A stretch of DNA of 64,000 nucleotides from Amphiscolops sp. MND2022 (Eukaryota). Within the stretch, counting starts at the first letter, position 1, and every line of letters starts with the position of its first letter. Location: the NCBI GenBank assembly GCA_964187785.1, contig OZ076409.1, positions 21,950,001-22,014,000 of the forward strand, given 5' to 3'. Positions 40,889-63,592 of the stretch are shown piece after piece. The notes under the pieces were generated by a model. It was not told the DNA's origin. It did no database searches and was given only the letters and a program-made list of their open reading frames with translations. Position numbers and translations under genes: made by a program.

Positions 40889-40989
40889 GTGAAGGTTTGG
40901 CAGAATTTGGAAAAAAACGCATCACAGATCATGATTGTCCTCCCCCATTGAAAATTGGGGTCGCAAAATAATTATAAACCTCTTACCAT

Positions 40990-43318: not shown

Positions 43319-45284
43319 GGGAGGGGGGAATAAGATCTAAAGAATAAGATCTAAAATCAAAAAAGGGAATAAGATCTAAAGGGAATAAGATCTAAAATTT
43401 CAGAAGGGGAATAAGATCTAAAATTTGAAAAAAAGAGCCAGCAAAATTGTGAATTGTGAAATTATCACGAATTAGCTGCATCATCGAAAGCCACAAAAAC
43501 ACTTCCATTTATTTTTTGCCCACACATTTTACAGCAAGAAAGCTTTCCGCAATAAAAACATAGCATATGCCCACAGGGTTGAACAAGGAAACAAATGTTA
43601 TTTTGGTCGCATCCGACACACATGTCATAATTTTCTTCATCATCCTCGGAGCATTCAAGATTATCATCTCCGGATTCAGTCGGGTCTTCATTCTCATCTT
43701 GGTCCTCGCCACCAAATGTTTCAAGTTTATGAAAGGATTTTTCGTTGGCTCTGCTAACACGCTTCAAAAACTCGGGGAGGGTCAAACGACCATCCCTGAG
43801 GCGTTCTTCTGCATCTTTTATTGCAGCGTCAACAGTTTTAGAGAATTTTGAGCGGCGCTTTCGCGTTTCAGAACCAGTTGCCAGATCGTTCATCTCAAGA
43901 AAGTAGCTTTTAGCAATTATTTTGATTCTTAGTAAAAATACCCAGAAATTCGGATGGCGAACTTGAATTTTTCGCAATAATCCCCAATGAAAACATTCGA
44001 CCTCCGAGTTCGTTCTTCGGACACATCCATGCACAGAAAGGAGTTGATGGGGAATTTTCCCCATCCAAAACGACTCAATATAATTGTAAAATTTGAACAC
44101 GTTGTCGTCTGTATTCTGAAACTTTGAAGGTGACAAATATTGAAAACCTTCAGGGATTTTCTCAGCAGGTAGAAGGGGCAGAGACATCAGCTGCTGAAGC
44201 CAAAAAAGAAGCGTTTCATTTCTTCTGAGCCCGAAATGAACCCACTTTCTCCAAAGCGCTTGTCTATAATGAAAGTAGCAGCCTTGCATTTCACATTCAA
44301 ATGTGAATTGAATCGAAGAATATAGAGCTGTTTCAAAGTCAACAACGCATTTTTCGGTTTGAACCCCGGATAGTTGTTACGTATTTGGATGAATGCAGCG
44401 TCATAGAGTGTTCGACATTTTGCTGTCATTAAAACATAGAAAACTGGCACCAAATCGTCAGAAACTACGCAGTGGATTGTTAAGAGCTGGTAGAAACATT
44501 TCGGAACAACCTTGAATGTTGCGTCAGCATGGATAGTGGAAACGCTTTCGATGATATCACAGGGTGTTTGTGTGAAGAATAGGAGAGCATACTCCTTTCC
44601 AGCTATGATGACGTTACGGAAAAAATGATTATCATCAATTTTCCCCAAGTCAGTGCTGAGCGCGACCTTAAATTCTTCAGAATTACTTGGAACTGCTGGC
44701 AAAGTTGTGGAACGTCTTTTCTTTAATGTTGAGACAATTTTTGGAAATGGTCTTAGATTTTCGTTGGCGTTTTCGTCATATATTTGCCTTAATGAAGTAC
44801 ATGTTGTCTCAGCTGTATCCTTTATCACTGACTCTGTTTTATGGCGCTTCACTGCATTATGTTCTGGGGGATGATCACACTTTTTAACGATACTCAAAAA
44901 ACCACAGTTTAATTCTGCTGTACCTTTGCATTGATCACGCCATCTATGGCATCGCAGATAAATTTTGTCTTTGACTGCCGAATTCTTGACAAAAATAAAA
45001 CCCTCACTGACGTAGTTCACTGATCCTTTCCGTTTGCCCTCAATTTTTTCATAGTTATTCATCTCAACTGAAAAGTAAAAAACCTGACTTTGAACCACGA
45101 ACATTCGAAAAAAGTACATTCCTAAGTACATTCCGAACGAATAAGATCTAAAGGGAATAAGATCTAAAATTAGATCTTATTCCACTCAATTTTAGATCTT
45201 ATTCCCTTTTTCAAAGTTGAGCATGTCACAATTTTAGATCTTATTCCTTTAGATCTTATTCTTTAGATCTTATTCCCTCCTCTA
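43319..45284 (-). mobile_element. Mutator/MULE DNA transposon
   Basis: 9-bp TSD CGTAGAAAC (43310-43318, 45285-45293). TIRs are built from repeated GAATAAGATCTAAA units. Confidence 0.93.
43465..45062 (-). CDS. FLYWCH-MULE transposase with C-terminal RING finger (~532 aa; one 1-nt frameshift at ~44350)
   Basis: FLYWCH-like YLRCHRWRDQCKG...CDHPP, HADATF (D1), VVDFE (D2, after the shift), GCYFH (CxxH), RTNSEVE (E). RING: CVGC...PCGHMLCFYC...CKMC. Confidence 0.9.
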
Positions 45285-46301
45285 CGTAGAAACAGCGAAA
45301 AGAGCAATCACATGCTCCGTGCCACGTCACACATCGAATTCGAATTTTTGACAAAATTTCTGAACATGTCAAAGTTGCAAAATCGTTTGATATTGCTGTA
45401 CCAGAGCTTGCCGTTACAGTCCATACGATTTTTATGCAATTTTGAACACTCATTCTACTCCCAAGGTGCTCCTGCGTGCGTCAAAAGTGTAGCCGTCAAA
45501 CCTGAGAAACAGCCAAAATTAGCCCAAAAATGGCCAAAGAACCGCTACTTCTGGATTTTCTCAAAAACTTCTACGATTTGAACGAACTTTTATGAAGTCT
45601 TTTTACACCATATATAGGCTTCACATGTGCAGTTTATCAAAATGGCATGACTGGGATTCGAACGAGAGAGAAATAAAAAGTGAACAGTAAAATCCGACTC
45701 CTTTATCGCACATGCGGCTCTGGTTACATGTACTTTTTATCAATGATTTGAAGAGCCTACAAAACTTTGTGAGGTGGATTATTTACTTCAGAATGGAACA
45801 GAAAAATAAAACAGCGAAGAACTTTGAATTTTTAAAAATGTTGTGTTATTCATAGATACAGCGAAAGCTCAAATGCGGGTCATTGAATAACGTCATGTAA
45901 GTTACACTAATATTCCTTATTTCTAACACAGCATACAAAATCTTTTCAAACAACCCGTTCGAGATAATTTTGAAAATGAAACAGCTTTTTGAATTCGTTG
46001 ACTACTTCTTCTCGCTTCGCTAATTCGCTGTTCCGCGAATTAGTGACGCCAAAGCCCCAGATACTTTTGATTAGGTTCGTGGAAAAACGAAACGAGTAAA
46101 ATTCATTCTTCACAAGTTCGTCCTATTTGAATAAAATCTATGAGGAACTGTCTCAAATTTTTGAATCTTCAATTTAGATTTTTGAAAGATATCAGTTGCG
46201 GTGTCCCATTGTTAAGAATTCAATTTTATGTTATACCCACACAATACCTACGCAATTCCTGGCACCACGACAATTCGTACAAACGACATTTCGTACAATA
46301 C

Positions 46302-47855
46302 TGTCGTAAGCACGATTGTCCGAGAATGTGAATCCGTCCTTCTGACGATCACTAAGTGTCTTACTCTTCAAATTGTTTCTAGAGTCTGCATTACGCAGAA
46401 CTTCGGAATATTCTTCCGGTCTCTCAGACGGAACGTTCCATCTCTCTTTGGCCATATGTCCAGAATCGGCCATTAGGGCATTTTGGATTTGGGGAAGTAC
46501 CTGATTACTTATAGCCTCACTTATAGCTCTTTGGATTTGAACACTGACACTATTCATCATCTCATCCATCTCCCGAGATATACGGGAATTCAACTCACTC
46601 GACAATCTGTTGATCTCAGCGTTAGAACTACCTCTAACTGAATTCTGTCCTAATTCGGCATTTGGACCAGGCTCGTCAGTTCTAGAGTTGGGCGATCTAT
46701 TTTCATCCTCATTTTCAAATTCATCACCAAAAAGACTATTAGGTCTTCTGGCCTGATTACTATTTAAACTTTCACTTCTTTCATTCCTGTTGAAATGATT
46801 TCCTCCGAGCATTATGTCTAAGTTCTCGATGTCGGATAACATTTCTGCTTCTCTTGATTTTCTTGCTTTCTTTTGCTTCCTTGTGGTAGGCATTTAGATA
46901 GAAAGTCCGAGGTAAATATTGAATTATTATTTTCGGAAAATAAGAATCAACTGTTTGGTACAAACGTATTACACTTGTGTGTCCCTCAGGAGTGAAACTC
47001 GTATATATACTCTCTGAGGTATGACTTTTACAAAAGGAATTCACAAATAGTATTCAAACATTCCAATCGGGGCACGGGACTAAGGATTTTAGCGGGAAAT
47101 ACACTGCAATCTCCAGTTTTCCGACTCGATTGGGAATTCCTAGCATTCTAGAATTACAATTGTTTATCTATCAAAGGCGGCATCAAAATATTTACTAGTG
47201 CATCAAATGGATCTTCTGTCCATCAAAGGACCTAGCACTCATCAGGAATGTAATATGGCCTTGAAGGCCTAGCAAAAGGTTGAGTATTAAGACAAAGCAT
47301 CGGTTATAGGAAAAGATCTGGCTATTATGAAAGTACAAATACAACAAACATAACTCGTCTCATGTTAAATTACCAGCTTATTTCAGCTTTGAACAGAGGG
47401 GACGAAACCGGCCATTTGACCAGTGTATCAAAAGAGAATATTAAAAGCACGGCAACTGGCCTTATTCGGCCATTAATTAAATAGCATCAATAAACGAGAT
47501 TACATACTGCGATTTGATTGGCTGAGATAACGTGCTCAAGTGACGCTACCGGTACAGTGCCGTACATCACTTGAACACGTTTCCTATACTGCCTTACAGT
47601 CGCTATTGCTTTCAATTATCGCATCAATTCTAACCATACAGTAATTTGATTTGGATTACTCCAATTGTATTATTTTTAACAGACTAATCAATGTAACTGA
47701 ATTTACAAAAATACAAAAGCGTGTTTTGTTACAAAACGTTAGCATAACAGTTTAAAAGTTTCAGTTTCAGAAAATTGGTAGAGTACCTGGTGCCGTTTCC
47801 TGATCTGCGGATGTCGTTGTAATCCTTGTGCCGTCACAGGCGGCAGCCTGCGACA
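46302..47855 (-). repeat. 3' LTR (1554 bp)
   Basis: Direct repeat of 60488-62278 with about 9 substitutions seen and a 237-bp deletion. Minus-strand ends TGTCGCA...TACGACA. Confidence 0.95.
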
Positions 47856-48555
47856 CTGCAGGAGCGACGAAAAGCAGACTGCCCGCGTTCAGCCCGTTGA
47901 TATAAGCTTCGCGCCTTAATCTCGTAATGTACTCCGGTTCGTCCCGCGGCGTTGACCTCTCCATATACCAGTTGACTTTCTCGTCCTTTATGTCATCTAC
48001 GGACCTGCCACATACCAGACATCCTGTATAGCGCACTCTGCTGATATCTTCGTAGGGTTGCGTATTTTGCACATGATAAGAGGCATGAAACCCGCTTGCA
48101 AAGGATTGTACTAAGGGAGTGTGATTGCTTGGTCCTTTCTCGTGTTCCGGCGGCGACATTGGAGACTCCGGTACCGGCAGCAGCGTCTTGCATAGCTCAA
48201 TTCGCGTCTTCTCCACTCTCTTGGGTGGAGCGTAGCATCTCTCATGGTCGAAGTATCTTTGGTCCATTTTGGGGGTAGTGTCCTTGTGCGGCTGTGAGCT
48301 GCTTGGACCGGCTACCATGTGTTCCTCTTCGAAGTCCTCCGTGGTCATGATTCTGCCTCCTATCAGCATAGGGCTCGAAGTCACTTCTTTCTCTATTCTC
48401 GCGATGAGCTGCTCCGTGTCCGTGGAACAGTCCGTTTCCCATACTTCTGACAGTTCGTCGTCGCTACTTGATATGTAAATCACTGAAGCTTCAGACTCAT
48501 CCGAGCTATCTCCGTCGAAGTCAAATAATTTTCTTGCCAAGTTGTATTTGGACAT
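47767..48555 (-). CDS. Retroelement accessory ORF3 (262 aa from ATG 48555), unknown function, not env-like
   Basis: Intact ORF in the env position with an acidic N-terminus (ARKLFDFDGDSSDESE) and CLVC. No signal peptide or clear TM segment. The last 89 nt lie inside the 3' LTR. Confidence 0.75.
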   Translation of the reverse strand: MSKYNLARKLFDFDGDSSDESEASVIYISSSDDELSEVWETDCSTDTEQLIARIEKEVTSSPMLIGGRIMTTEDFEEEHMVAGPSSSQPHKDTTPKMDQRYFDHERCYAPPKRVEKTRIELCKTLLPVPESPMSPPEHEKGPSNHTPLVQSFASGFHASYHVQNTQPYEDISRVRYTGCLVCGRSVDDIKDEKVNWYMERSTPRDEPEYITRLRREAYINGLNAGSLLFVAPAVSQAAACDGTRITTTSADQETAPGTLPIF

Positions 48556-48649
48556 TATGACTTTCTTTGCAATTTTTGAAACTTGTGAGTCGACTGAACG
48601 GTGAGGAGATTCAAATTCAAATAAGTTTACCAACTCCCACCTCAAGACG

Positions 48650-49460
48650 AGTCTGGTAATTTCCCGGGAGACTCGTTTCGGCGGTAGAATCTTAGGTTAT
48701 TCAACCTTATCTGTCGTAAACTTTCATGAATGGAATTTCCAGCGGCGGTTAATCCTTTGAAACTTAGGTAGGAACCCTCCATCTTCGTCTTCTCAAGTGG
48801 GTAGTCAGAGAGGTGTTAAGTTGACAACAACAAATAATTCCGCTTTCAAGTGGGTAATTAACATCGAGCTTGATAGTAATCAACGGCATGCGTCAGGTGA
48901 AGTCTACTAAAATGGCTTCAGCCAATCAAATTTGGGCTTCGATAAATTTGAAAAATGAATAGTAAAGATGGCGGAAAATAATAATTTTGAATAACTAAAA
49001 TGGCGAAAATAATAAATCGAAATAATTCAAAATGGCGGAAATAACAATTTGAGTAACTATAATAACGGAAATCCCAATTAGGATAACAAACGAAATGGAA
49101 CAAGATGATAAACCGAAATGGGGTAAACGGCCGTAATCGGCCAATAATTCCATAAGTTGTAAATAATGAAGTAATTTTTGTACATTTCGCTGGCAGACTC
49201 CATGTACAGAATAAATATGTAAATAATCCCGTAATATTAGTCTGGTAATTTCTTCAGCCACGAACTCCAACTTTCTCTCTTTTAATTGTTACATTATTTG
49301 ATTCATCTACTATTCACTCCTTACTCTTTCCATTATTCTCCTTTGTCTACAACCCCAGTTTCTGCATTTATTGGGCTCGCTCATAATTCCATTGCCAGCG
49401 TCACCTCTACGCAGGTCCCCGATTTCTTCTTCTTCTTTGGTCCGAATCCAGCTGTTCAAT
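48650..49460. promoter_or_regulatory. Putative bidirectional internal promoter
   Basis: Non-coding gap between divergent ORFs. Three ~31-33-bp repeats with AA(G/A)ATGGCG (48964-49058) and CCAAT boxes at ~48922 and ~49141. Confidence 0.45.
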
Positions 49461-49466
49461 CCGGTC

Positions 49467-52400
49467 ATGTCGGACCGACAAGGACTTTCCCCGGAAGAGC
49501 AAAAACTTCAGTGCCAAGAGATCGTTAACACAGGTTGGTTTGAGTAATCATATTTTGAACTAATTAACGTGATCAAGGTTAACTTTGTTCATAAACTGCT
49601 TCCTGTTTCCATCAAAAGACACGTGATAACATGTCTATTTAAAATTTCAAACACTTCCGGAAGATTTCTAAAGCGGTCAAAATGGACTTTTTCCAAGGAA
49701 GCACACCGCCAAATTTCATTTCTTTCTGTTTAGTTGGCCAGAATGAAGATGAACCACAAACTTCTTCCAACACTGTTCCGGATCCCTCCGTTGCACTAAT
49801 TCAAGTGGTTAGCCCACCTTCTAATACTGATCCAGTTCGGCCCCCTGTTCCTTCTCCTCCACCTTTTCCGCCACTAGTTTCTACAACTTCCCGGATTCGA
49901 ACTGGGGAAATGACTCCCCTTTATAGTCCCGACAGTAACACAGACGTTACTTCTTATGCTGATGAGATGGTCCAACGGCTAGAGGATGCACAGGCTAGGC
50001 GCATAGCTGAAGCAGACGACACAATCGAAACAGCTTTCAATACGGCCCCCAACTCGCAAGTTCCGGAGAGTAATTTGAATCCCCTCCTCCCAAGGTCAAG
50101 CACTCCAACACTTGATGCTGAAACAGTTGGGCTGTCCGCCAACCTGTCACAACTTGAGACTGCCTTTGGCGTTGTCATCGGTACACAGTCTGACTTGCCA
50201 GTTCTTGTTCCAGTTCCCTTACAAACAGAATTGCGGGAGCGAAGTGATGGGGATAACGCGTCCTCCACTTGTGACTTTCCTGGACTGCCAAAAGATAACC
50301 CGAAAGTCCACTTCTTGACGGATGACCCTACTGAGAGTTAGAAGGCTAGTGACGACACAAGTCATGTAGAAGGACCAGCCCTTTACAGCTCTGTCCCTTT
50401 TGGATCTGAATCCGGAACTGAAGCCGGGGATGAGTCAGGACCAGGACATGACACTGTGGGACTTGGTATGCCTTCCAGCTCTCGGGGACCTGATGACCAT
50501 CTTCCAGAATTAACCGGTCGAAGCTGAGCCATCTTGAAGACGTACTTTGCTGACACCAAGCCATTCAACCTACCGCTAGGACACCCCACTGTGGCTTTTA
50601 CTGAGGCTCAGATGTATCATTTGCTACGAGTCCTGAGTGATGAAACTCTTCGAATGTCCTACTCTACCATGGAGAAGATGGTCGTCGATGCCGTCAGAGG
50701 CAAACCTACTGTTTCACCTTCTAAGACGTCTCACTTCCTCATCAGGAACAGAGCACAAACTCCAGGCAGATGGGATCAGAACGACCAGAGTTCTTCAGAA
50801 GCTGAGTACGACTCGAGCGCGGATTCTAGGGCCTTAACTCCTACCAGTGCAGGAGATACAGGAGATTCTTCCTTCGAAGGGGAATCGGACAGTGCCACTG
50901 AAATGGCTCTGATTTCAGCTACCTTGGGGGGCGAATCCCAACTTGCTCAATCTTCGCAAGAAAAGGACAGATTCGTTGCCACATGTACCACAGGTGATGA
51001 TGAGACCACGGGCCCCAGTAGTCAGGAAACTACTCTCCTAGAGCTCCAACAGCAAGCCCGAGGGACAAAGGCGAAAGGTTCTTCTGGGCGCAAACTCCCC
51101 ACTAAACCAAGAAGACTTGCCAGTCGAGGGGTCCCAATGCGGGAAGAATTTTTCGCCAAGATTGGGTGGACCCGATCTTTTATCTCTGGACCCGCTGATC
51201 CGGTACACAATCCACATATGGTTTGGTGCCATATGTGCAAAAAGAATTTTTCAATTCGGTCCAAGGGCGCTTTCGAAATCTTACGCCACCATCGTACAGA
51301 GAGACACCTGCGACGAGACCAACGTTGGAGGTACGAACACCTCAAGAGTGTGGACCCAGCCAGTGGGAAAATACGGCATCGAGTCCGAGGTCGGAATGGG
51401 AAAGTGTTGACCGCAATCGAGCTAGCCAAGGAGTTGCCGAAGTTCATTCACACTGAACTTGTAGACGTAGGAGAAAGATTTCCCTTCTACGACGACTTCA
51501 TGCAAGGGCGACCTACTGCCTTAGTCACCTCTGAGTCGCGGGCAAAACTACAGCTGTCCATCATAGGAGACTTCCTACAGACCCAAGGCGGCTTCTTGCT
51601 GCTGAAGAGTCTGTGGTCGAGAATCAGTGCCCACACCGACTACCAGGCTAACTTGTGCGATTTCGATTGGTCAGAAGAGCGCATTACGGTAGGTTCTTTT
51701 CTGTAAGTTGACCAATCACTTTCGCGTTATCGACTAGATTACTAAATGTACTTGTCCATTTCAGGCCATCTTCCAACATTTCTTTAACTGCGCTATGAAC
51801 CACTTGGCAGAACAGATTACGGCTGAGCAGTGCTTTGCTATAGAGTTCGAGGACAGGGGCCCTAACTGGTACATGACAGTACGATACTGGGAAGGCCAAA
51901 ATCTCCACCGGGTCCTCATCTGCAGGAGCCAACTACCAGCTACTGACCTGACCGGGGAACTGGGATCATTGTCCCGCCTGTTGTCTGTTGTTTCCACCAA
52001 GGCTGACATAGTGGCGTGCTCCGGAAGCTCTGTCGATCTTCTTCGCACAATTGATTATTCTCCCCTCTTCTCCCGAGCTGTGCAGAGTTGTTTTCGGTTC
52101 GACCAGTTGAATCTACCCAAGATGATGCATAAGACCAGTTACAGTGTCTTTGGCCACATAGATTTTTTATCAGTCCTACGTGGTCTAGTTATCTCTCTTG
52201 GTGGAGCGCATTCTGAAGACTGGTACCAACGCAGCCCAGAGCTAGCTCAGGTAAATAACGTTCACCTTTCTAGTGTTGCATTCGTAATCAATCAGGTGTT
52301 AACTGAGGGGGGGGGAGGAGCGAATTTCCTTAGTTGTTCGAGTTTAAGTTGCGATTTCCTTTCCCAGGCCATATCCAGCTGCAAATTGGAGCTCTCCACT

Positions 52401-53936
52401 TTACCGACCCTTTGCCAGGAACTGATTGAGGAGTGGAAGCCGATAACAAGCTACTTGACGACGCACGTGCCACAGCAACAAGGTCAAGGAGTCCGTACTC
52501 GGGTAAGTAACCAGATCCTTACAGCCTTTAAATATATGCTGATTAGGAGTTGCTTGAGATATATAGAAGGATGAGTTCCCATTTCCGTTCAGTGTCTATT
52601 GTACTAATATAGGGTCTTATTACAGGTGCAAAGTTTTGAGTGGGGGCTAATTTGTGACGAATTCATTCTTGTCAAGCTGGAATTCTTTTGCCGGATCGTC
52701 AGTGACTGTTAGTGTGCCTTTATTATCTTTAGTCAGGTTTTCTGCTTTAAACTGTACCAATTCCTTTCCTTAGATAACACTAGCTTCATTGTCAACACTC
52801 ATCATAGACGAGATGCCTCATTCTTCCTCTGTGGGGAGGTTTCCAAATTCGTCTACCAGCTGTGCTTCAGATGTTTCACTAGCGATTCGGTTCCTTTGCC
52901 AAGTGCCTGGTTTCTCCTTCTGGGATTCCAAGTGGGTGACGGGACCCTCATGACTGCTGGGGAATTTCTTGTCCGGCTCAATATGACCAACAAGGTTGCC
53001 TCTGCTTGCAAACGAAAGGCCGAAGGGGTCCATTCTGGAAAACGGTCGGATCGGGCCTTAGTCCAAAAAACAGCCGAGACCATCAAGACTGAGTTCGTCC
53101 AGGATGCCATGGCTTATTTAAAGTACCTAATTAGTGAAGTACTGCGACAAGCTGGGCTCAGTTCCAATATCATCAAGGGGCTGGCCGCATTCGACCCTCA
53201 CATTATGGTCAAACGTCCCACGGAGGTGGCGCTCCGGCATTTCGACATCCTTTTTAGCACGTTTCAGCGCCGTTCTTGGATCAGTGCCTCAGTCGAAGCA
53301 GCCTGCAGAGATCAATATGTTGAACTGATTGACTACCTTCGCGCTAAGTACTCTGGTGGGCTCGAAGTTACAGAAGAGGCTAAGGACCTCTTAGATTTCC
53401 TGATGAACCTTGATTTCCTGCAAGCACGAGAGCATCTCCTCCACTTATTCAAGTTGTGCTGCCTTTGCATCACTACAGTGGGTCCTGAATTTCCAGTTGT
53501 AAAAGTGGGCAGAGTTGATACTTCCGGACAACGGGGTCGCTTCATTGACGTCGTTCTCCCCATCCAGAGCTATTTGATCGGGGTTCCTGGCTCTGTAGCG
53601 AGGTGTGCGAGCGAGTCTAACCTCACCAATTTCTCCCTTCTTTCTGCCTCTTTTGGGTCATCTGCTTTTTCGCCTACTTATGACCCTTGGGAGACGGTTG
53701 ATGTCTTTGGGCGGACGAAGATATACAAGTCGCTTCTATCCTCTTATCGTTCCGCAGTCTCAGAGCCTTCAGTTGGGTCTGCTCAAGTGGAAGCCAATGA
53801 TACGTCTTCGGTCCTGGATGATGCGGCATTGAAAGTGCCCAGTAGCAGTAAACGCAAACGGACTGAGAAGAGAGCTGCTCGTTCCCGTTCCTCATCCGTC
53901 TTCAGCGAGTCTTTGTCCAGTTCTTCTATTGTTTAA
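49467..53936 (+). CDS. Antisense spliced cargo gene, ~1295 aa, zinc finger plus hAT-transposase-like. Exons 49467-49533, 49734-51688, 51765-52250, 52368-52502, 52626-52707, 52774-53936; two nonsense codons in this copy
   Basis: Five GT-AG introns with matching phases (1,0,0,0,1); the exons sum to 3888 nt = 1296 codons. Zinc finger WCHMCKKNFSIRSKGAFEILRHHRTERH. In-frame TAG at 50339 and TGA at 50525. Confidence 0.8.
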
Positions 53937-54153
53937 GTGTACATATGTATTTATGTACAATTTGAAACTGTATTCTTTGTTGATTTTCTGATTCTGTATT
54001 TGTTTGTTATGATTTCATTTCTGTGCCCCTATATTATTCATTTGCTAAGGGGTCTGCTTTGTGTCCCATTATTTATTCAAAAAATTTGCTTCTATGGGAC
54101 AAAAGAAAACGTTAAAGAAAAGAAAATAGGTTCAGGGCTTATTTCAGTCTTTC

Positions 54154-57100
54154 TTAGTATCTGAAGTCTTCTGAGTAGTTCGGATTAGGGTTAGGCCTGA
54201 GATTATATTTCCCTCCTCTAGGGCTCAGACTTTCATTTCTAGCATCGTTTTCGGATATTTCGGGCACGATAATATCATCCCCCCTTCTGGAAGATTTTTG
54301 TGCATCGTTTTCATTCATTGGATTTCTTTCTGAAAAAATTTCATCCTTTTCCGGTCCATCTGCCGTATTCGGCAAAAAATTTTCTTGGTTTTTCGGGAAA
54401 ACGGCCGGATTCGGCCAATCAGATTTGTTATTTTCTGTCACTGCAGTAGCTTCATTTCTTTCAGTGACGTCATCATTTAATCGTTCATCTCGGCTGTGCG
54501 ACGCACGATCGGCAAGATTTGATTCGTCACTCGTGATTACATAATCCACTTCATTCTCGCTTGCGTCACTTGCATTCGCTTCTGCCGCACTCGGCTGTGC
54601 GTCATTCGTCAAGCTGGCTGGAATAGGCTCGCTGCCTCGTGTATCTAGCTGTCCGCCAAAGTTTGTTTCCCACGTTGTTACATACAAGTCGTCTTGCGGA
54701 ATGATTATTTCGTCATCCGGCTGTAGACGCTGTTCTCGGAAATTGTCCTCAAGTGGCTGATTTGGAACAAACTTTTTAAGACGAATTCGATGCAAGATCT
54801 GCGTTTTATTTGTATTAAGCCTGCGGACAATGTAATTCTCATTAGGTAAGGTCTTCTGGACTATAAATGGTCCAACCCAGCGATAATCCCTGAATGGAAT
54901 TTTTGATCCTTGATGATCCGCTTTCGGCTGTAATACAAAACAGTAATCGCCCTCTTTGAGTGGGGCGGCTTTTGCTTTTCGGTCGTAATACTCCTTATAT
55001 TTGATATATGACTGCATGATGTTCTGTTTTGTTTTGTCAATAAGGAGTTTGGTCCGGTTCTGGATTTCTTCTGCGAATTCAGTAGTCGGGTGGATTGGTT
55101 CATTTGGATTCATTCCAAGTTTGTGATCCAAGATGTTGTATGGGATTCTCCCATGGAACACTCTTGTGGGTTCGCATCCGATACTGGCATGATAACTAGT
55201 GTTATGATTGAGAACTGCTAAAGGCAAATATTTATGCCATTGTCGGCGATATTCCCCACATGCCATTTTCAGGTTCGTTTTCAATGAGGCATGAGTTCGC
55301 TCTAATTTTCCGATAATTTGCGGGTGTTTCGTCGTTGCACATTTTAGGGTAATGCCTAAAATCTGTGTAATTTCCGCAATGATCGTGGAAGTAAAGGCAG
55401 TTCCTTTGTCCGTAATTAGCGTCGTCGGTAGGTAAGAATGTTTGGTCATAATATCTATGATTGCTTTAGCTACATTGATCGTTGATGCGTCCGTAAGAGG
55501 ATAAGCAAACAAGTATCGGGAGAAGACATCAATTGCGGTTAAAATGTTTTCGTATCCTCCACTTGGGGGAAGATTCGGCAATAAGTCGATTTGCATGGCG
55601 TCTTCGGGTCCAAGGTCCCATTCCGGCAAGTTAAGTAGTTCAGGCGTGATTGTTGCGTTTGGGACTCGTTTGTCCTTTGCACATTGTTCACACCCTTCTA
55701 CCCACTTTTTGACATATTTTGCCATGTTAGGGTAATAATACCTTTGTCTGATTTCCTGCAACATTTTTGAAATCCCGGGATGTTTATGCGCTGTCCCGTG
55801 AAGGGAGTGGAGCAATTCCCGAAGTAGGTGTTGCGGGAGCAAAATTTGATGGTATTTAACATTCCCTGTTTCATCAAAATATTGCCTTGTCAGGATTTCG
55901 TCCTTTAGTACAATTCGTTCCAGATTATTTGCATAATGTCTAAATCGGGCATCCTGTTGCAGTATGTTTTCTGAATAGTCTTCATGAAGGAGCTTTGCCT
56001 TCAATTGTTGCAATACTGCATCTTTGGACTGCTCGATGATTATCTGGTTTGTTTTCTTTAATCGGACTTGAATGTCTGGTTGTTGTTTGACCAGATTGGT
56101 TGACAGAGTTTCTATGGTAACAGTGGGCTCGTCAATTGCTGGATTTTTCCTGATTGCTTCTTTTCTTGCCCAAAACTGTTCTTCTGTTTCGTTGTCGTCA
56201 TTCGTATAGAATATTTGTTCTTCCTGTGATACCCCCGCAGATTGAACATTTATCTCAATGGGTAAAGTTTGTACGTCCTCGCGGATTTTCATGACTAATT
56301 TATCCTTCGGATCTGCCTCCAATCGGGACAAATAGTCAGCTGCTGTGTTCTGTGCCCCCGGGATATGTGCTATGACAAAATTGAACTGAATTACATAATC
56401 ACATGCATTCCACAGGGCTGGGGGTATTATTTTTGTTTGAAAAAATCTCGTCACAGCTTTGTTGTCTGTGAGAATAATGACCGGTTTGGGTGCACCCCAG
56501 AATATATGTCCAAATTCTTTGAATGCAAAATAAATTGCAAGGAACTCTTTGGCATATATCGACATCTTTATCTGGGCTGGGGTGAAGGTTTTAGAGCCAT
56601 ATGCCACCGGTGCATAGGATTTTCGAAAGGAAGTAAATTTCTGGTTCGGATCATCTTCTATCAGTACTGCGTATCCTGCTGCACCAAAACTTGCATCTGT
56701 CATTAATGCAATTTGCTTATTCGGGATGGGTTGTTGTAGGGCCAAGTCGCAACATTTGTCTAGTGCTTTATTGATTTCTTCGAATTGTTGGACTAATTCT
56801 TTCGATACTAGGACTTTTTCGTCACTTTTTAGCATCTTGTAGAATGGAGCAAGGCGTTCAGAGAGTCTTGGGATATAATTCCTGTAGTAGTTTAGGAATC
56901 CCAAATATCGTTGTAAAGCCTTTTTCGACTTCGGGAATTTGGTCTTTTCCAGAAAGTTTTGCACGTTCTGTTTCTGGGGTTTGACGCCTTGCGGGGTAAT
57001 AGTCCTTCCGAGAAAATCAATTTCTTTGGCACCAAAGTGACATTTGTGCATTGTCAATTTAAGGCCTGCTTCCTGAATGCATTTGAATGTAGCTCTCAGG

Positions 57101-59360
57101 TTAGCTATGAGGTGGTCAGCGTCGTTTGCTGCAATGCCTATATCGTCCACGTACTGGGCACACTGATCCGCTTTGATGACTTTGTCGAGGTATTCTCTCA
57201 TAAAACTCGAGAATGCAGATAGTGACCGGCTAAGGCCTTGTGCCAAACGTCTGTAGGCGAATGTGCGACTGGCAAAATTGAAAGCCAACAATTCTATTGA
57301 ACGTTGGTCGGCCATTGGTAGGCAATGGTATGCCTGCGAACAGTCTAATTTACAGAATAGTTTTTTGCCTGCCAAGTGTTGGGCAGCATCAACCAAGGTG
57401 CTAACAAGGTGATTATTGTTTATATAATCAACCGAGATGAGGTTGTTGATTTTCCTCAAGTCAACCAAAAGTTGTAGCTTCCCGTTTGGTTTCTTTTGGG
57501 CGAATATTGGGCTTGCATACTTTGAGAACGGTAGAGTGGTGATGATGCCATATTTGTGTAACATGGCTAATTCGACTAGGATGTCCTCCTTCAAGTTGAT
57601 AGGAGCTGGAAGACTTTGATTATAGGCTGGGGAATCGTCTTTAGGTGTCAGTTTCACCTTGAAGTCCTCGTTCATGCCTATATCGAATCGGTGTCGTGCA
57701 AAGATGTCGTGGAATTCCACTAACAATTCTTCTATTTTCTCCTTCTCTTCAGGAGTAAGGGTGGAATCTTTCCAATCAAAGTTTTCTAAGAATTTCGCAC
57801 GTGATTCTTCGTCTTTGGTGGGGTCAAGTGTCTCTAGGTCCTGTAAGGCCTGTAATTCTTGAAGGATTCGTTTTTGTATGGGCGTATGTTCGTCGGGGTT
57901 TCCAGGATTTTCTGGAGTTGGGAACCAGTAGTTTTCGGTGTTTTGTGGATTTCTGTTCGTCTTGATCAGGCTACTGACGTAATGGGCTGCTTGCTCTTGG
58001 TCGTTTTGCAACAAATGCCAGGTCGATGCCGGGTCTACCGGTTTGACGTATTTCATTTGTTCTGGTGTCATGACTGAGAAACTAGCAATGTGGAGTCCCT
58101 TTTTAAGTTTATAAGGGTGATCTGTGAAGTTATTCACTGGTATCATTATATTGCCGTCGTTCAAGGTGACCAAGGCTGGGCAGAATGTGATGTCGCCTTC
58201 TTCATGCAGAAGGTCACTTGGCTGTAAGATCCCTGTGACCGTGTTTTCAGGGTATAATAGGGAATTAGTCCTAATTAGGACTCTGTCATTTGGCGGGATT
58301 GTGATTTCGGTAGGGTTCAAAATTGGTTCTAGTACATTTGAGTATTTATGGTCAGCTGTTTTGAGCTGCATCGAAAAAAACGGAAAGTTCAGTATTCCTT
58401 GCCTCATGTCCAGAACTGTATGATTTCGCTGGAGGAACATTAGTCCTATGATTGGTCCTGTCAGATGTTCTATTACTATGAAGATTTCATGGAACTCAAT
58501 GTCACCAACTTCGAATTTGAGCTCTATTGTACTTTTAGGAGTTTCCAGTTGCCCATTAGCGACCATGATTTGGAAGTTCGGAGGCGGACCCTCTCGGATA
58601 ACTGATTGTGGTGAAAGGAGTCTAATTTTCCGGAGGTCCATTTCGGGGATTGCACTGGATAAGGCGCCAGTGTCGATAAGTCCATCAATGGTCAATTCCC
58701 CAAAGTCCATAGGGAAATATAGCATGCGTTTCTTGCATTTCAAGTTTATGTTGGTAGACAGGGGTATACAGTCTGGTTCACCTTCTCTGGTAATAAGGAT
58801 GTTTTGGAACTGACTTTCGTCAAGTAGTGACTGTGGTATTGTTTCTTCTGGTTTGTCTGAGGTCTCGGTCCCTAAGGGGTTTGGGAACACCGGATGGCTT
58901 GTACCATCGTTCATCTGCCATGTTTCAATCAATGCTCTGGTTTTCTTGTTATGGGTGATTGGTGGATTGTCATGGACTGATCTGTTATAGAGTTCTATAT
59001 CATCAATAACGTATTGGAATTGTTACAAATCCTGGTTGTAAAGTTCGGCATCCCAATAGGGATCTCGTCCATAGTCAGGATCTATGTAGGTAGGGTTGTA
59101 GTTGTCTACCAAGGGAATGGGCCTGAATCGGCTATTGAAAGCGGATGTGTAATCAGGGTCCCAAGCAGGAATTGGTTTTTGGAACAAATGGGTATTATTA
59201 TAAGTAATAATGGTAGCTTTTTCCATCTGTTGCTGCCAGACAACAGAAGGATAGCCCATCAATTGTTGATTGTATTGGTGAAAAATTTGCGTTGGAGGGT
59301 CCGATCTGATGTATTGTCGGACAGATATTAGTTGGTTGTATTGGAGTCGTGGCGAAGTTA
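54154..59360 (-). CDS. pol: Gypsy Pol (protease, dUTPase-like spacer, RT, RNase H, integrase); one in-frame TAA at 59023-59025
   Basis: LIDTGA; YVDD; TDAS/EFLAI/TDNK/ADYLSR; HHCC plus D,D,E (IDLL, TDKG, LERTH); WVGPF module. The pol frame runs from the slippery site with that single stop. Confidence 0.95.
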
Positions 59361-61079
59361 GTTTTTTGACTCATCATTGGAAGATGAGGTCTGTGAGTTG
59401 GAAGGTGTTGATTTGTTTTGTGGTTTCTGCGCCTTTGAGTTGGGTTTACCGTCATTGGTGTCATCTGGTCTGGTGCGTTTGGGTTTGAGATGTGCACCAG
59501 CACCTTGCCAACATCTTTCTTCCGGGTGGTTCTTTTTACCACAAGTGCCACACTCCGGGTACGTCTTTTTCTGAGTCTGTTTGCCTTGTTCGGCATCTTT
59601 TTGTTTTTTCTTCTTCAATTTCTCGCAATCTTTGACCATATGGCCCTTTTCTTTGCAATAATTGCACGTTATATCACTCATCTGTACATTGGAAGGAACA
59701 GTTTTTGTCTTGCCAATCGAAGATGTCATTGATGCTATGGGCAGGTCGTCAGACTCTTCGAGTGCATTCAGTTCCAGTTCTCGTTCTAGATGAGCGACAA
59801 TTTCATCGTAAGAGCCATTCTCTAGTCTAGCCATGTTGACTGATCTTTTGAGCTTTGGTGGCAGTTTTGCATATAGGAGACTGTCGATCATTTTTTGGGC
59901 ATTGTCTCCGAAGGCTTTTTCTGCTCCTTGGTTAAGCTCTTCAAGAAAGTCTGGCAATTTGGTCGTGTTAGGGTCAAAGACTAGGCGATGCCATTTGTGT
60001 TTTGCAGTTGCCTGAGATTCAGGTTTGACGTACTTTCGTCTGAAAATGACAAGTACATCCTCAAGAGTTTGTCTGTTGGCGTTGCTTATGTTTCTGAATG
60101 TTTGTAGTGCATTCTTTCGCAGCAAGGAATGGAAGTGATTGATTTTCATTTGTTCGGTCATCTCAGGCTGCATCTTGATCATCGTATGGAATAAATCCTC
60201 AAACAGCTCGAACTTCTCACTTTTTCCGTCGAATGTCATTGTGTTGGAGTTGACTGGGCGGATAGTGAGTTGTTGGGCCGTTGTACGGTTCTGCATACTA
60301 GTCAAAACATCTGCTAGCCTGTTGATGGGGTCCTGTTCTGATGCCAGAGCGGGTCGTTCTCGTGCTGGGATCGTCGTGTCGAGCAGCGGAAGGTCATCAC
60401 AGGATCTGTTGAGATGACTAGTGGATGGCATTCGTCCTGTGAGAAACTCAGGAACTTCAATTGGAGATTCGTTTTCTCCTGTCACCATGTCGTAAGCACG
60501 ATTGTCCGAGAATGTGAATCCGTCCTTCTGACGATCACTAAGTGTCTTACTCTTCAAATTGTTTCTAGAGTCTGCATTACGCAGAACTTCGGAATATTCT
60601 TCCGGTCTCTCAGACGGAACGTTCCATCTCTCTTTGGCCATATGTCCAGAATCGGCCATTAGGGCATTTTGGATCTGGGGAAGTACCTGATTACTTATAG
60701 CCTCACTTATAGCTCTTTGGATTTGAACACTGACACTATTCATCATCTCATCCATCTCCCGAGATATACGGGAATTCAACTCACTCGACAATCTGTTGAT
60801 CTCAGCGTTAGAACTACCTCTAAATGAATTCTGTCCTAATTCGGCATTTGGACCAGGCTCGTCAGTTCTAGAGTTGGGCGATCTATTTTCATCCTCATTT
60901 TCAAATTCATCACCAAAAAGACTATTAGGTCTTCTGGCCTGATTACTATTTAAACTTTCACTTCTTTCATTCCTGTTGAAATGATTTCCTCCGAGCATTA
61001 TGTCTAAGTTCTCGATGTCGGATAACATTTCTGCTTCTCTTGATTTTCTTGCTTTCTTTTGCTTCCTTGTGGTAGGCAT
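59358..61079 (-). CDS. gag: Gag, 573 aa, two CCHC zinc knuckles
   Basis: Capsid-like FDGKSEKFELFEDLF...; knuckles CNYCKEKGHMVKDC and CGTCGKKNHPEERC. Confidence 0.93.
   Translation of the reverse strand: MPTTRKQKKARKSREAEMLSDIENLDIMLGGNHFNRNERSESLNSNQARRPNSLFGDEFENEDENRSPNSRTDEPGPNAELGQNSFRGSSNAEINRLSSELNSRISREMDEMMNSVSVQIQRAISEAISNQVLPQIQNALMADSGHMAKERWNVPSERPEEYSEVLRNADSRNNLKSKTLSDRQKDGFTFSDNRAYDMVTGENESPIEVPEFLTGRMPSTSHLNRSCDDLPLLDTTIPARERPALASEQDPINRLADVLTSMQNRTTAQQLTIRPVNSNTMTFDGKSEKFELFEDLFHTMIKMQPEMTEQMKINHFHSLLRKNALQTFRNISNANRQTLEDVLVIFRRKYVKPESQATAKHKWHRLVFDPNTTKLPDFLEELNQGAEKAFGDNAQKMIDSLLYAKLPPKLKRSVNMARLENGSYDEIVAHLERELELNALEESDDLPIASMTSSIGKTKTVPSNVQMSDITCNYCKEKGHMVKDCEKLKKKKQKDAEQGKQTQKKTYPECGTCGKKNHPEERCWQGAGAHLKPKRTRPDDTNDGKPNSKAQKPQNKSTPSNSQTSSSNDESKN
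59361..59367 (-). promoter_or_regulatory. -1 ribosomal frameshift slippery heptamer A_AAA_AAC
   Basis: Lies immediately before the gag TAA. The -1 frame is the pol frame and is open (LTSPRLQYNQ...). Confidence 0.8.
60476..60487 (-). promoter_or_regulatory. Primer-binding site (TGGTGACAGGAG; tRNA-Leu-like, tentative)
   Basis: TGG directly follows the LTR-terminal CA, exactly where LTR-LTR identity ends. Confidence 0.75.
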
Positions 61080-62278
61080 TTAGATAGAAAGTCCGAGGTA
61101 AATATTGAAATATTATTTTCGGAAAATAAGAATCAACTGTTTGGTACAAACGTATTACACTTGTGTGTCCCTCTGGAGTGAAACTCGTATATATACTCTC
61201 TGAGGTATGACTTTTACAAAAGGAATTCACAAATAGTATTCAAACATTCCAATCGGGGCACGGGACTAAGGATTTTAGCGGGAAATACACTGCAATCTCC
61301 AGTTTTCCGACTCGATTGGGAATTCCTAGCATTCTAGAATTACAATTGTTTATCTATCAAAGGCGGCATCAAAATATTTACTAGTGCATCAAATGGATCT
61401 TCTGTCCATCAAAGGACCTAGCACTCATCAGGAATGTAAACAACATTACACACATTCCTTTCAGGCACGTGCCACCGCGTGGCCTGAAATAAGTTCTGCA
61501 ACAATATGTAGTACATCATGTTATTAGGCCTAATACGGCCAATTATCATGTTAGCAATTATATATGTTAATCAACCGATTAGCCCCAAATGTATGTACCA
61601 CTTTACTTTTCAAAAGAACGCAACGACTTCAGTGGCCGGAAATAGCCGGCTAATTAATAGGCAAGCACTAATGAAATATGGCCTTGAAGGCCTAGCAAAA
61701 GGTTGAGTATTAAGACAAAGCATCGGTTATAGGAAAAGATCTGGCTATTCTGAAAGTACAAATACAACAAACATAACTCGTCTCATGTTAAATTACCACC
61801 TTATTTCAGCTTTGAACAGAGGGGACGAAACCGGCCATTTGACCAGTGTATCAAAAGAGAATATTAAAAGCACGGCAACTGGCCTTATTCGGCCATTAAT
61901 TAAATAGCATCAATAAACGAGATTACATACTGCGATTTGATTGGCTGAGATAACGTGCTCAAGTGACGCTACCGGTACAGTGCCGTACATCACTTGAACA
62001 CGTTTCCTATACTGCCTTACAGTCGCTATTGCTTTCAATTATCGCATCAATTCTAACCATACAGTAATTTGATTTGGATTACTCCAATTGTACTATTTTT
62101 AACAGACTAATCAATGTAACTGAATTAACAAAAATACAAAAGCGTGTTTTGTTACAAAACGTTAGCATAACAGTTTAAAAGTTTCAGTTTCAGAAAATTG
62201 GTAGAGTACCTGGTGCCGTTTCCTGATCTGCGGATGTCGTTGTAATCCTTGTGCCGTCACAGGCGGCAGCTTGCGACA
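60488..62278 (-). repeat. 5' LTR (1791 bp)
   Basis: Direct repeat of 46302-47855; contains the first 592 nt of gag. Confidence 0.95.
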
Positions 62279-62875
62279 AATACCCTTGTTGAACATGCTT
62301 GAACTTTTTACATGTACTTTAATGTTGCCATCAACTTTTATTATGATTTCCTAAATATCTTACGGAAGCTTTAATGCGTTGATATTTCCCTGTTGTCGCC
62401 TACATTTATCAAGCTGCTTTAACGAATCATCAAAGTTTTGGAGGCAATTTTAAGCCTTGAAGTTTTGCAGGTTTCAATATGCATCAGTTCTAATTTTAAA
62501 TGCAACTGAGACGTCAACAATTTTGCCGCCATTTTAATGCAAATTAACTTCATTCACAATGTAAACAGCAAACTAGCGTCCTCTTCAGCGTCCTATTTGA
62601 GAAGCGGTGATTAAATCAGATGAGTATTTGAGAAATCAATGTGTGAAGACAACGTGATCGTGCCGTGCCGTAAAAGATGTGTGAAATATTTTCAAATCTA
62701 ATTGCAGTAGTGGCAAATGCAGTGTAATTCTACACGATTTACCACCGGAACCTTACTGAATTTTCTAGGTTTTATAAAAAAAATTACCCTGCATGCAGCA
62801 TGTACGAAGTTCCAGCAGTCTCAATTAGGGTAGCCAAAAACCCGACATTTCGTACACGGACAATTTTTACAAAAC

Positions 62876-63592
62876 TGTAACGTCCACCTAGCAGCGTACA
62901 TCATAGAAGTGGGATAATGCCTAGGGTGCTTAAACAGGAGACTGTTGTCGTACTACAGCCCTAGACATTAGTTCTTAATCCCGAAATGGTCTCCTAAAAA
63001 AGGAGAGACCTTCAAACCTCAGTTAGAGCTCCGTGGTGACGTGCAGGCGCACTCAAAGTCCGGACACGTCCCACAAGCCTGTAAAAACGTATCCTAAGGT
63101 TGCTAACGTTCCTGCGACTCTACATACCTCCGAGGTCCGAAAGCAGGAGTTTAGCTAAAGTACATTTTAATTAGGTGAATAACGTCTAAAATAACGAAAA
63201 TAGGGGTCAAACATCACCAAATATCTGCAAAAACCACAAATAGGGTACAACAGACCGAGGAAACATAAGGCGTCAGTGTCAGCTAGTCTTCGACCTGGTA
63301 GGTGGCACATGCAAAATATGCAAATTTCTGAGTTTCTTTGTCTCTTGGGCCATTCTTCGGGTTCCGCTGGTACCTTGGGACGTCGTCCGAGGGAGATGGC
63401 ACCACACGGTCATTTCGGGCATAGTTCTATTGCGGGGTGTTCTCTCTCTGGCTGGGTGAGGGTGTCTTTTTTGCGTTTTTTCACTTCTTCTACGGTTTCC
63501 GTACCTGCCGGGTCGGCCATCTCGCACATTTTGATACCGCACATTTCGAATTTTTGATCGAAATTTTGTAAAATCGACTGCCTGACGTTACA
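62876..63592 (-). mobile_element. 3' LTR (717 bp) of a second LTR retrotransposon that continues off the right edge
   Basis: 9-bp terminal inverted repeats TGTAACGTC / GACGTTACA. A minus-strand purine tract GGGGAGGA abuts the TGT at 63592 (PPT). Confidence 0.75.

Follow-up and report, generated by a model that had tools for sequence, protein, structure and literature searches.

What is a spliced gene facing the other way doing between pol and the 3' LTR of a Ty3/Gypsy-type retrotransposon, and where did it come from? The question is raised by a 16-kb element on the minus strand of the window (the whole stretch of 64,000 nucleotides from Amphiscolops sp. MND2022 analysed here), at positions 46302-62278. 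Its ends are mapped exactly, with a single 5-bp target site duplication, AATAC, read directly on the left (46297..46301) and the right (62279..62283), as the sequence-only reading of this DNA had stated, and with LTR termini TGTCG..CGACA. The 5' LTR (60488..62278, minus strand, TG..CA) is 1791 bp long and the 3' LTR (46302..47855, minus strand) 1554 bp, and they differ at nine of the 1554 aligned bases (99.4% identity); the earlier figure of about 99% thus holds, although that reading left unmentioned a 237-bp segment that is present in the 5' LTR and gone from the 3' LTR. The 3' LTR contains the final 89 nt of a third sense gene, ORF3, and repeats the 5' end of gag, and neither AATAAA nor ATTAAA occurs in the 5' LTR or in the 2.5 kb past the antisense stop. 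The 6.3-kb region between pol and the 3' LTR consists of the five-exon antisense gene, a 1.1-kb divergent spacer and ORF3. The window copy is itself defective, with three premature stops in addition to the 237-bp LTR deletion.

The proposed order of coding LTR, PBS, gag, -1 shift and pol is borne out in each of its parts. The gag gene (59358..61079, minus strand; 573 aa with a zinc knuckle) starts 592 nt within the 5' LTR, codons 1-197 lie inside that LTR, and the frame continues across the PBS; its best Pfam match, below the cut-off at E 3e-5, is DUF1759, which we take to be a BEL-associated domain. A slippery heptamer, A AAA AAC (59361..59367, minus strand), lies directly upstream of the gag stop and is found in 20 of 21 loci, with A AAA AAT in the other, and pol begins in the -1 frame relative to gag. 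We also considered a hairpin 3' of the slippery site (z -2.7) as a stimulator, but at about 40 nt downstream it is too distant for a clear case. The pol frame (54154..59370, minus strand) encodes protease, RT, RNase H and integrase in the order PR-RT-RH-IN, and carries one premature stop at 59023-59025, present in the window copy and in none of 21 other loci. Among solved structures, the RT and RNase H are closest to Ty3 Gag-Pol (E 3.8e-46) and then to foamy virus (2.2e-31).

Priming of the two strands presents different pictures. The 12-nt primer binding site TGGTGACAGGAG (60476..60487, minus strand) is complementary to the 3' end of a genomic tRNA plus the added CCA; we read this tRNA by eye as an intron-bearing Leu(CAA), and Rfam detects it in locus L151 and not in L149 or L150, while ARAGORN misses it. 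At the expected site of the polypurine tract (47856..47915, minus strand) there are instead ORF3 codons rich in pyrimidines and ending in CAG. No polypurine tract was found at the 3' LTR: the last 15 nt hold five to eight purines at all 53 junctions scored, and the longest purine run in the last 60 nt is four in 34 of the 53, with a maximum of nine. The polypurine tract is the usual cis element and not a classifying criterion for Ty3/Gypsy elements, and we file the element as an atypical Ty3/Gypsy variant because it lacks one. Its lack is hard to square with the standard model of how the second strand is primed, and annotation pipelines that depend on the tract would miss or down-rank such elements.

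The antisense gene lies on the plus strand, opposite to gag and pol, and has 1293 codons in five exons with a CCHH zinc finger. Exon 1 (49673..51688) encodes an acidic, Ser/Pro-rich region of about 480 aa followed by the zinc finger, CxxC-x16-H-x5-H, and in the window copy has premature stops at codons 223 and 285. Exon 2 (51765..52250, 162 aa) is predicted with low confidence to fold as helix-b1-b2-b3-a-(b4)-a-b5, an RNase-H-like order; exon 3 (52368..52502, 45 aa) and exon 4 (52626..52707) follow, and exon 5 (52774..53936, about 387 aa) is predicted to be helical. The antisense and pol stops are convergent and 217 nt apart. The four introns (76, 117, 123 and 66 nt) are all GT-AG, and GT-AG is found at the matching positions of introns 1 to 4 in 51, 52, 35 and 54 of 54 copies, respectively. 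Intron 3 (52503..52625) is cleanly gone in 17 of the 54, exact to the base. An 847-aa frame in one subfamily that suggested loss of intron 1 is actually a stop-free, in-frame 75-nt intron. The convergent spliced gene proposed earlier therefore stands as to its introns, conserved in position among 54 copies, with the evidence for splicing itself being comparative; on the pattern of its sequence, this is almost certainly a real, spliced and functional gene.

ORF3 (47767..48555, minus strand) encodes 262 aa from its ATG, with an acidic N-terminus and a CxxC motif, and terminates 89 nt into the 3' LTR, in agreement with the divergent spacer and LTR-entering sense gene first described. The best genome matches are stop-free in 140 of 146 cases. 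ORF3 gave no family match and no env match in Pfam or the PDB, and neither it (maximum Kyte-Doolittle 19-mer 1.33) nor the antisense exons (1.54) contain a transmembrane-like stretch, so that the element is, as claimed, without env and is set apart from env-bearing errantiviruses and retrovirus-like elements by a third ORF with neither a transmembrane-like segment nor fusion-protein homology. The spacer (48556..49672; 1035-1111 nt in 15 other copies) has conserved non-coding blocks, among them a CCAAT block near 48917, a repeated AAAATGGC, presumably YY1-like, and CTTCCGGAAG, which we assume to be ETS-like, immediately upstream of the antisense ATG. From these sequence features the spacer is likely to be a two-way promoter. 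The suggestion of two accessory genes under their own promoter thus holds for the genes, which are family-wide, while for the promoter it comes down to the conserved non-coding blocks.

The host genome holds more than a thousand members of the family to which the element belongs. Exact matches to two 19-mers number 1188 and 1040, the former from a near-invariant block (49235..49270) at the left edge of the exchanged cassette discussed below. Both extra genes are present in 54 of 54 other copies examined, and carriage of the cargo by other copies, on which the sequence-only reading had staked its case beforehand, was found under three selections: in copies chosen by the cargo (20/20, with both LTRs and the same gene order), by RT alone (19/19), and by a diverged exon 2 (15/15). 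LTR pairs are at least 99.3% identical in 15 of 20 copies and exact 5-bp TSDs flank 18 of 20, and the element is a recently spread Ty3/Gypsy-type LTR retrotransposon, its family recently active as had been supposed. Sequence comparison indicates that both extra genes are under purifying selection. With 19 loci each compared with the window copy, so that the values are not independent, median dN/dS is 0.03-0.11 for the zinc finger, exon 2, exon 5 and middle of exon 1 of the antisense gene, 0.29 for its N-terminus, and 0.04 for integrase; exon 2 is stop-free in 142 of 150 matches.

These figures bear directly on the notion of the cargo as a passively carried nested insertion, or as an artefact peculiar to the window copy, which could draw on the three premature stops and the LTR deletion of that copy. 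Presence in 54/54 copies, 1188 exact spacer matches, dN/dS far under 1 and the lack, in the window copy, of terminal inverted repeats above 12 nt at the two cassette borders refute it.

The antisense gene has a history of its own. In 18 of 19 copies chosen by RT, ORF3 is 95-99% and the integrase core 97-99% identical to the window copy, whereas the antisense exons are only 58-71% identical; two loci (L017 and L019) have the opposite pattern, with 96-98% identity in the antisense gene and 66% in ORF3. With groups taken from this same identity comparison, exon 5 is incompatible with the ORF3 clade (AU test, p 6.7e-7), and ORF3 with the exon-5 clade (p 1.1e-5). Saturation of synonymous sites affects 14 of the 19 pairs for exon 2 and none of them for integrase. 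Taken at the level of sequence, the antisense gene comprises deeply diverged alleles swapped onto near-identical pol/ORF3 backbones, giving the elements a mosaic ancestry in which lineages have exchanged their extra genes, and these alleles are much older than pol. They reassort freely with LTR and ORF3 types, which makes a lock-and-key fit between each allele and its own target in the LTR less likely. Accessory alleles older than their pol suggest long-running selection in a conflict, whether with the host or sister lineages.

As to origin, we consider that the antisense gene probably descends from a hAT transposase, a view that draws on weak sequence and model similarities. The zinc finger CxxC/HxxxxxH is near-invariant across alleles, with sub-threshold Zn_ribbon_19 matches only in Pfam, and the model of the zinc finger plus exon 2 (pLDDT 41, low confidence) has an RNase-H-like strand order. 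With this model as query, Foldseek places Hermes first of 350,542 chains (E 0.03), a rank that is fragile because both antisense-protein models are of low confidence (pLDDT 55 and 41), and Hermes is absent from the best 50 matches of both VIA runs with the pLDDT-41 model. In the ESM Atlas, FAM200/GTF2IRD2 and Dimer_Tnp_hAT clusters rank second and third at 0.89, which we treat as leads, the Dimer_Tnp_hAT family being present on 47% of its cluster; the zinc finger plus exon 2 region gave no usable Atlas match. The best local profile matches, non-significant, fall in hAT order, with exon 2 on the strand of the first catalytic Asp and exon 5 on the C-terminal helices. Forward hATs outscore reversed ones with the exon 2 and exon 5 profiles (p 0.002 for each, against 0.99 for the ORF3 profile), these p values being inflated by the relatedness of the sequences.

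Formal searches for this homology were negative. Profile-profile tests with hhalign against two hAT sets were all non-significant (probability at most 2%), the best hmmsearch E among 108 sequences was 0.021, and 42 genomic hAT loci gave no scoring match. No member of alignments A1 or A3 matched the Pfam hAT families, no Pfam match to the C-terminal dimerisation domain PF05699 was found in 66 members, PDB sequence searches with alignments A1, A4 and A7 gave no match, and the exon 5 model (pLDDT 55) had no Foldseek match at E<=0.001 and a best VIA Z of 6.1 to generic helices. Searches of the genome itself with PF14291 and PF18658 were also blank, and carry no information because the controls were equally silent, though locus L135 looks DUF4371-like. 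Many copies of genes distantly related to the antisense gene exist in the genome. In the weakly aligned hAT register for DDE/CxxH/ERxFS, the first Asp falls in a gap, the conserved Cys is not followed by His, and the last helix has no conserved Glu after it. A precedent for a regulatory role is given in the available text of a recent preprint, where transposases work as activators with sequence specificity and the DDE residues are lost from those that become domesticated (bioRxiv 10.64898/2026.08.24.746577).

Our best explanation overall, to which we give slightly less than an even chance, is that the antisense protein is a dead hAT-type transposase turned nuclear DNA-binding regulator that keeps the family transcribed; we are similarly tentative in suggesting that it may have a transcriptional or anti-silencing role. 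A DNA transposon would have inserted in reverse downstream of pol, ahead of the 3' LTR, and been retained after losing both its ends and its catalytic activity. Reverse orientation would shield the introns, because the spliceosome does not see antisense introns on the genomic RNA, and intron 3 was likely lost when the element's own RT copied a spliced antisense mRNA. The protein would contact element DNA by its zinc finger and work through the long acidic region, its mRNA likely being driven by its own promoter in the spacer, with ORF3 perhaps a second small regulator made from the opposite side of the same promoter. RT template switching at the near-invariant flanks could put old alleles on young pol backbones. 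The complete scenario, in which a retrotransposon domesticated an intron-bearing dead hAT as an exchangeable counter-silencing or transactivating cassette, with ancient alleles redistributed among young pol backbones in thousands of copies and with second-strand priming that needs no polypurine tract, is doubtful when taken as a whole.

Several other readings must be weighed against this one. The antisense gene could be a captured host or viral gene that is not transposase-derived, a regulatory role still being possible; every formal homology test is non-significant, and among the 972 relatives found, no member has a name in the 10 clusters that were checked. We regard this as a real possibility that we nonetheless lean against, since several partly independent weak hints favour hAT and no other family does so consistently. 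Alternatively, and in our view improbably, the protein, of whatever origin, might act on the element's RNA (about 14 kb as genomic RNA) in export, protection or packaging, like Rev or the Cer1 CERV protein. VIA aligns the zinc finger model with RNA-binding U1/TUT-type fingers (TUT4, TUT1 and U11 snRNP proteins) at Z 4.0-5.3, a shared RNA target would fit the free reassortment with LTR types, and the accessible part of PMC10309623 describes an accessory export protein, made from a spliced mRNA, in an animal LTR retrotransposon; however, the Z scores are within noise and the remainder of the protein gives the hAT-like hints.

Two further proposals seem to us very improbable. The antisense unit might restrain the element, as antisense RNA or repressor protein, or immunise it against sister lineages, with conflict keeping the allele diversity; the convergent layout, with stops 217 nt apart, and the greater age of the antisense alleles relative to pol suit this, as does an antisense-RNA role discussed for plant elements (PMC7264820, in its available text), but RNA alone is insufficient because selection on the protein matches that on integrase in strength, and the family is very successful. 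The protein might also be a targeting factor, tethering the integration complex to selected sites in DNA or chromatin. The architecture resembles a DNA-binding transposase, and hAT proteins oligomerise on DNA; against targeting, the 18 exact TSDs have no sequence in common and the first 100 copies listed are scattered along C1.

The dead-transposase regulator that we favour, and the family that carries it, can be set beside several known systems. Foamy viruses have an internal promoter, and their nef/sag genes overlap U3. Complex retroviruses are similar in having an antisense gene, an internal promoter and an accessory ORF entering the 3' LTR, but the window family lacks env and, of the solved structures, Ty3 is the nearest to its RT. 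The available text of PMC11963269 names the HTLV antisense gene HBZ, and as far as that paper and PMC7264820 go, antisense accessory genes are also known in the plant Gypsy elements Retand, Grande and RIRE2. Like the window family, these have a long region between pol and the 3' LTR (2.9-6.6 kb versus 6.3 kb) with a family-wide antisense ORF and no env; in Grande this ORF, gene 23, has an internal promoter, as proposed here, and for the Retand/Grande antisense ORF a DNA-binding regulatory role has likewise been proposed. As described in those parts, they differ in their flowering-plant hosts, in a TRP28 domain (PF04195, not matched by the window family in Pfam searches) and in having a polypurine tract, whereas the window family has an animal host, a divergent sense gene ending in the LTR, a gag starting in the LTR, and allele swapping. 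The Retand paper (PMC11963269) never uses the word 'intron', compared with the five-exon, 1293-codon gene here.

Among animal elements, as characterised in the accessible portions of the sources, Cer1 of C. elegans also makes its accessory protein, CERV, from a spliced mRNA, although, compared by description, that protein is an RNA-export factor and the abstract states no antisense orientation (PMC10309623). Captured third ORFs are common to several lineages of invertebrate elements in bdelloid rotifers (PMC5408684) and Oikopleura (Tor, PMC4402516), and the Tor internal promoter resembles the one we propose; these ORFs are, however, of env, esterase, exonuclease, coiled-coil or transmembrane types, and neither 'transposase' nor 'intron' appears in the rotifer paper. 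Spm TnpA and VANC are transposon-encoded sequence-specific regulators (bioRxiv 10.64898/2026.08.24.746577; PMC13547354, both as far as available), TnpA being transposase-derived as we suggest for the antisense protein, but both act for plant DNA transposons of their own type, whereas we propose a retrotransposon using the protein of another class; the term 'LTR' does not occur in the preprint. If hAT descent is true, one transposon class has domesticated the enzyme of another.

We found no description of the same layout in the literature, with Repbase, subscription journals and supplements such as the repeat table of PMC9911081 lying outside the scope of the search; the antisense allele swapping and the lack of a polypurine tract before the 3' LTR are new here. 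The plant antisense ORF precedent, the allele swapping, the missing tract and the broken window copy all lie beyond what the sequence-only reading had noticed. For plants, the available text of PMC7264820 and PMC11963269 treats what antisense accessory genes of LTR retrotransposons do, and where they come from, as an open question. The present family extends it to an animal, in more than a thousand copies, and its naturally swapped alleles and naturally lost intron, which serves as a marker, make function testable by knock-down and binding and history by phylogeny. Size alone, which had been put forward as an oddity, was overstated: the large, high-copy planarian Gypsy elements Burro/GYPSM1, as the accessible part of PMC6431247 describes them, exceed 30 kb and also carry extra domains, in their case fused in one sense polyprotein that includes env homology.

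The Gypsy element on the minus strand at 46302-62278, with a copy of AATAC on either side, has an architecture that is real, and it is a variant form of an already known kind of element. The sequence-only reading had described a coding LTR, primer site, gag, -1 shift and pol within a single 5-bp target duplication and between LTRs about 99% identical, and this description stands. The LTRs have TG..CA termini and show 9 mismatches over 1554 aligned bases. A further 237 bp are missing from the 3' LTR of the window copy; in the 14 other copies that share its LTR type and have two LTRs, each LTR measures 1792-1797 bp, which suggests a deletion specific to the window copy. The 573-aa gag starts 592 nt within the 5' LTR and its frame runs on across the primer site TGGTGACAGGAG, which offers 12 nt complementary to the 3' end of a genomic tRNA with CCA added; read by eye, the primer would be an intron-bearing Leu(CAA) tRNA. 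The tRNA genes matching this site form a tandem array (unit ~296 bp; locus L151, on contig G000:C8 from ~35.59 Mb), and the tRNA 3'-end pattern has 873 genome matches, with most of the first 100 listed falling in that array. Of 21 other loci, 20 have A AAA AAC ahead of the stop codon of gag, consistent with a -1 shift into pol, which has the domain order PR-RT-RH-IN and among solved structures is nearest to Ty3 (E 3.8e-46). The presence of introns, the 1.07-Gb size of the genome and its repeat content are consistent with an animal host, possibly an acoel worm. The pol frame of the window copy has a premature stop (59023-59025) shared by none of 21 other loci, and its antisense exon 1 has two stops.

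The cargo of antisense gene and ORF3, for which the earlier reading had proposed a search elsewhere in the genome, is present with gene order unchanged in all 54 copies examined, of which 20 were chosen by cargo DNA, 15 by diverged exon 2 and 19 by RT alone, these last being 19 of the 27 that remain when the 13 overlapping cargo matches (window counted) are taken from the best 40 RT matches. In 20 copies read across their full length, LTR pair identity is at least 99.3% in 15, and 18 have exact 5-bp duplications, with one mismatched and one that could not be located. A spacer 19-mer and an ORF3/LTR junction 19-mer have 1188 and 1040 exact genome matches (reversed controls, 0 each), and the family would occupy at least about 19 Mb if these mark near full-length copies; the 6372 to 8790 protein-probe candidates are an unscored first look, distinct from copy numbers. 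A strict motif test scores exon 1 as open in 28 of the 54 other copies, and gives 36 for exon 5 and 43 for ORF3. Matches recur every 14.2-14.4 kb at G000:C12:39.85-39.89 Mb, C1:34.57-34.59 Mb and C10:59.37-59.39 Mb, as expected for tandem elements with a shared LTR, hinting that the C10 pair, of a distant antisense clade, likewise lies inside an element of comparable size. Five ORF3/LTR junctions with a 1545-bp period at G000:C1:47790868-47797066 form a tandem array from the element's 3' end.

The antisense gene has five plus-strand exons defined by conserved-block alignment (49673-51688, 51765-52250, 52368-52502, 52626-52707 and 52774-53936; 1293 codons together), and in the window and nine other copies the exons are conserved, the introns divergent and the borders fixed. 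GT-AG is found in 51, 52, 35 and 54 of the 54 copies for introns 1 to 4, and the keeping of these borders at shared positions argues that the antisense unit is a real, convergent spliced gene, as had been proposed. Intron 3 is missing to the exact base in 17 of 54 copies, probably through a single event, because the four of them included in the exon-5 tree group together (support 100/100). A loss would explain this more simply than a gain, though the tree is unrooted. In one subfamily (loci L091:3522-6062 and L093:3509-6049), with many copies of identical score, the 75-nt intron 1 contains no stop and preserves the reading frame, so that the open frame extends to 847 aa. Across 19 loci, each compared with the window and with pairs of dS <0.1 or saturated excluded, median dN/dS is 0.05 for the CCHH finger (6 pairs), 0.03 for exon 2 (5), 0.07 for exon 5 (6), 0.29 for the antisense N-terminus (15), 0.09 for the part of gag inside the LTR (9) and 0.04 for integrase (16). 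ORF3 gave one usable pair (0.11), with 15 further pairs saturated for dS and having dN of 0.20-0.36.

ORF3 has no matches in domain and structure-database sequence searches and no transmembrane stretch, so the claim that the element has no env is upheld. It runs into the 3' LTR, before which there is no polypurine tract at any of 53 junctions scored (5-8 purines in the final 15 nt); these 15 nt are usually a pyrimidine run with a CAG end, within ORF3 codons. The first base of the LTR is nonetheless identical in all 51 loci shown. The spacer between ORF3 and the antisense ATG (48556-49672) retains the non-coding blocks CAGCCAATCA and CTTCCGGAAG in 46 and 52 of 54 loci, the 19-mer in 51, and AA[AG]ATGGC in all 54, this last being a short motif counted without a chance control. 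These blocks include putative CCAAT, YY1 and ETS sites, and the spacer is a putative promoter. A conserved donor-like GGTAA in the invariant block and a conserved CAGGTTGG ~290 nt further (window 49240-49540) bracket the spacer's most divergent part, which may be an intron in the 5' UTR of the antisense gene.

Comparison of the copies indicates that the antisense cassette has been swapped between element lineages. In 18 of the 19 RT-picked copies, ORF3 is 95-99% and the integrase core 97-99% identical to the window but the antisense exons only 58-71%, whereas loci L017 and L019 have the reverse pattern (ORF3 66%, antisense allele 96-98%). The left border of the cassette is at ~49272, directly past the near-invariant block, and the right border is near the exon 5 end. 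The ORF3 and exon-5 trees of 22 copies disagree: the exon-5 data reject an eight-member clade of the ORF3 tree with 100/100 support (p 6.7e-7), and the ORF3 data reject a five-member exon-5 group (p 1.1e-5), both groups having been picked after the pairwise identity pattern was known. Synonymous sites between alleles are saturated for exon 2 in 14 of 19 pairs and for integrase in none, which makes the accessory alleles far more ancient than the divergence in pol. The swaps may have come from recombination in the course of reverse transcription, a route already documented (PMC6894440). The alleles also differ in the residues immediately N-terminal to the finger helix (10 variants).

We consider it somewhat probable that the antisense gene descends from a hAT transposase, a hypothesis named from known motifs ahead of the fold searches. 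The N-terminal ~480 residues are 46% D/E/S/T/P, the finger pattern C-x2-C-x16-H-x5-H is near-invariant, and poor models predict b1-b2-b3-a-b4-a-b5 and then helices for exon 2 and a helical exon 5. With a poor model as query, the Foldseek top match is Hermes (E 0.03); for exon 5, hAT-derived clusters are second and third in the ESM Atlas (0.89, lead level). The best local profile matches follow hAT order, and forward hATs score above reversed ones for exons 2 and 5, not for ORF3. Pfam finds no hAT domain, and every hhalign run against hAT sets was non-significant, with templates that lacked the probably closest hAT subtype. In the weak hAT register the catalytic motifs appear to be lost, and the window copy has no inverted repeat above 12 nt between the cassette borders, so the gene is unlikely to be a nested transposon that is still live. 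With a profile as query, 972 relatives were recovered, reaching much more distant clades, and two distant relatives used as probes each have many copies in this genome.

In the favoured mechanism, a transposase gene would have inserted backwards and then been retained as an accessory regulator, its introns persisting because splicing is strand-specific and they oppose the genomic RNA. The gene and ORF3 would likely be expressed from one two-way internal promoter, and the protein would likely boost element transcription by binding element DNA; in plants, a transposase is able to switch on its own copies, and dead transposases turn into regulators (bioRxiv 10.64898/2026.08.24.746577). Free reassortment with LTR types speaks for any target being common to all lineages or carried along with the gene. 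Roles of the protein in RNA export or integration targeting, or of the antisense unit in self-restraint of the element, are live rivals to transcriptional activation, and we regard the bolder reading of cross-class domestication, in which a retrotransposon adopts a transposase of another class, as less likely than not.

Plant Retand/Grande elements typically carry antisense accessory ORFs whose origin is unknown (PMC11963269, PMC7264820) and resemble this element in that respect, and spliced or captured accessory genes are reported for Cer1 (PMC10309623), Tor (PMC4402516), rotifer (PMC5408684) and planarian (PMC6431247) elements. Among the papers that literature searches listed, Repbase aside, we found no animal Gypsy element combining a multi-exon antisense gene, an LTR-ending divergent sense gene, a gag that starts within the LTR, swapped alleles and the lack of a polypurine tract; the available text of one acoel genome paper (PMC9911081) gives LTR totals only.

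Elsewhere in the window, by-eye reading finds host gene exons on the minus strand (6852-10882), presumably of a TBC/Rab-GAP domain protein, and endonuclease/RT-like non-LTR retrotransposon ORFs at 12112-15809, 17449-18816 and 20499-22463, one frame being open over 1006 aa. A degenerate tandem array (unit ~184 bp) occupies 24140-25470, and the sequence beyond the element (62860-64000) is GC-richer with short frames. Adjoining the element is a MULE-like DNA transposon (40620-45282) with FLYWCH and weak MULE matches (44187-45176) and a RING finger (43465-44376), all on the minus strand; it also holds GAATAAGATCTAAA units repeated in both direct and inverted orientation.
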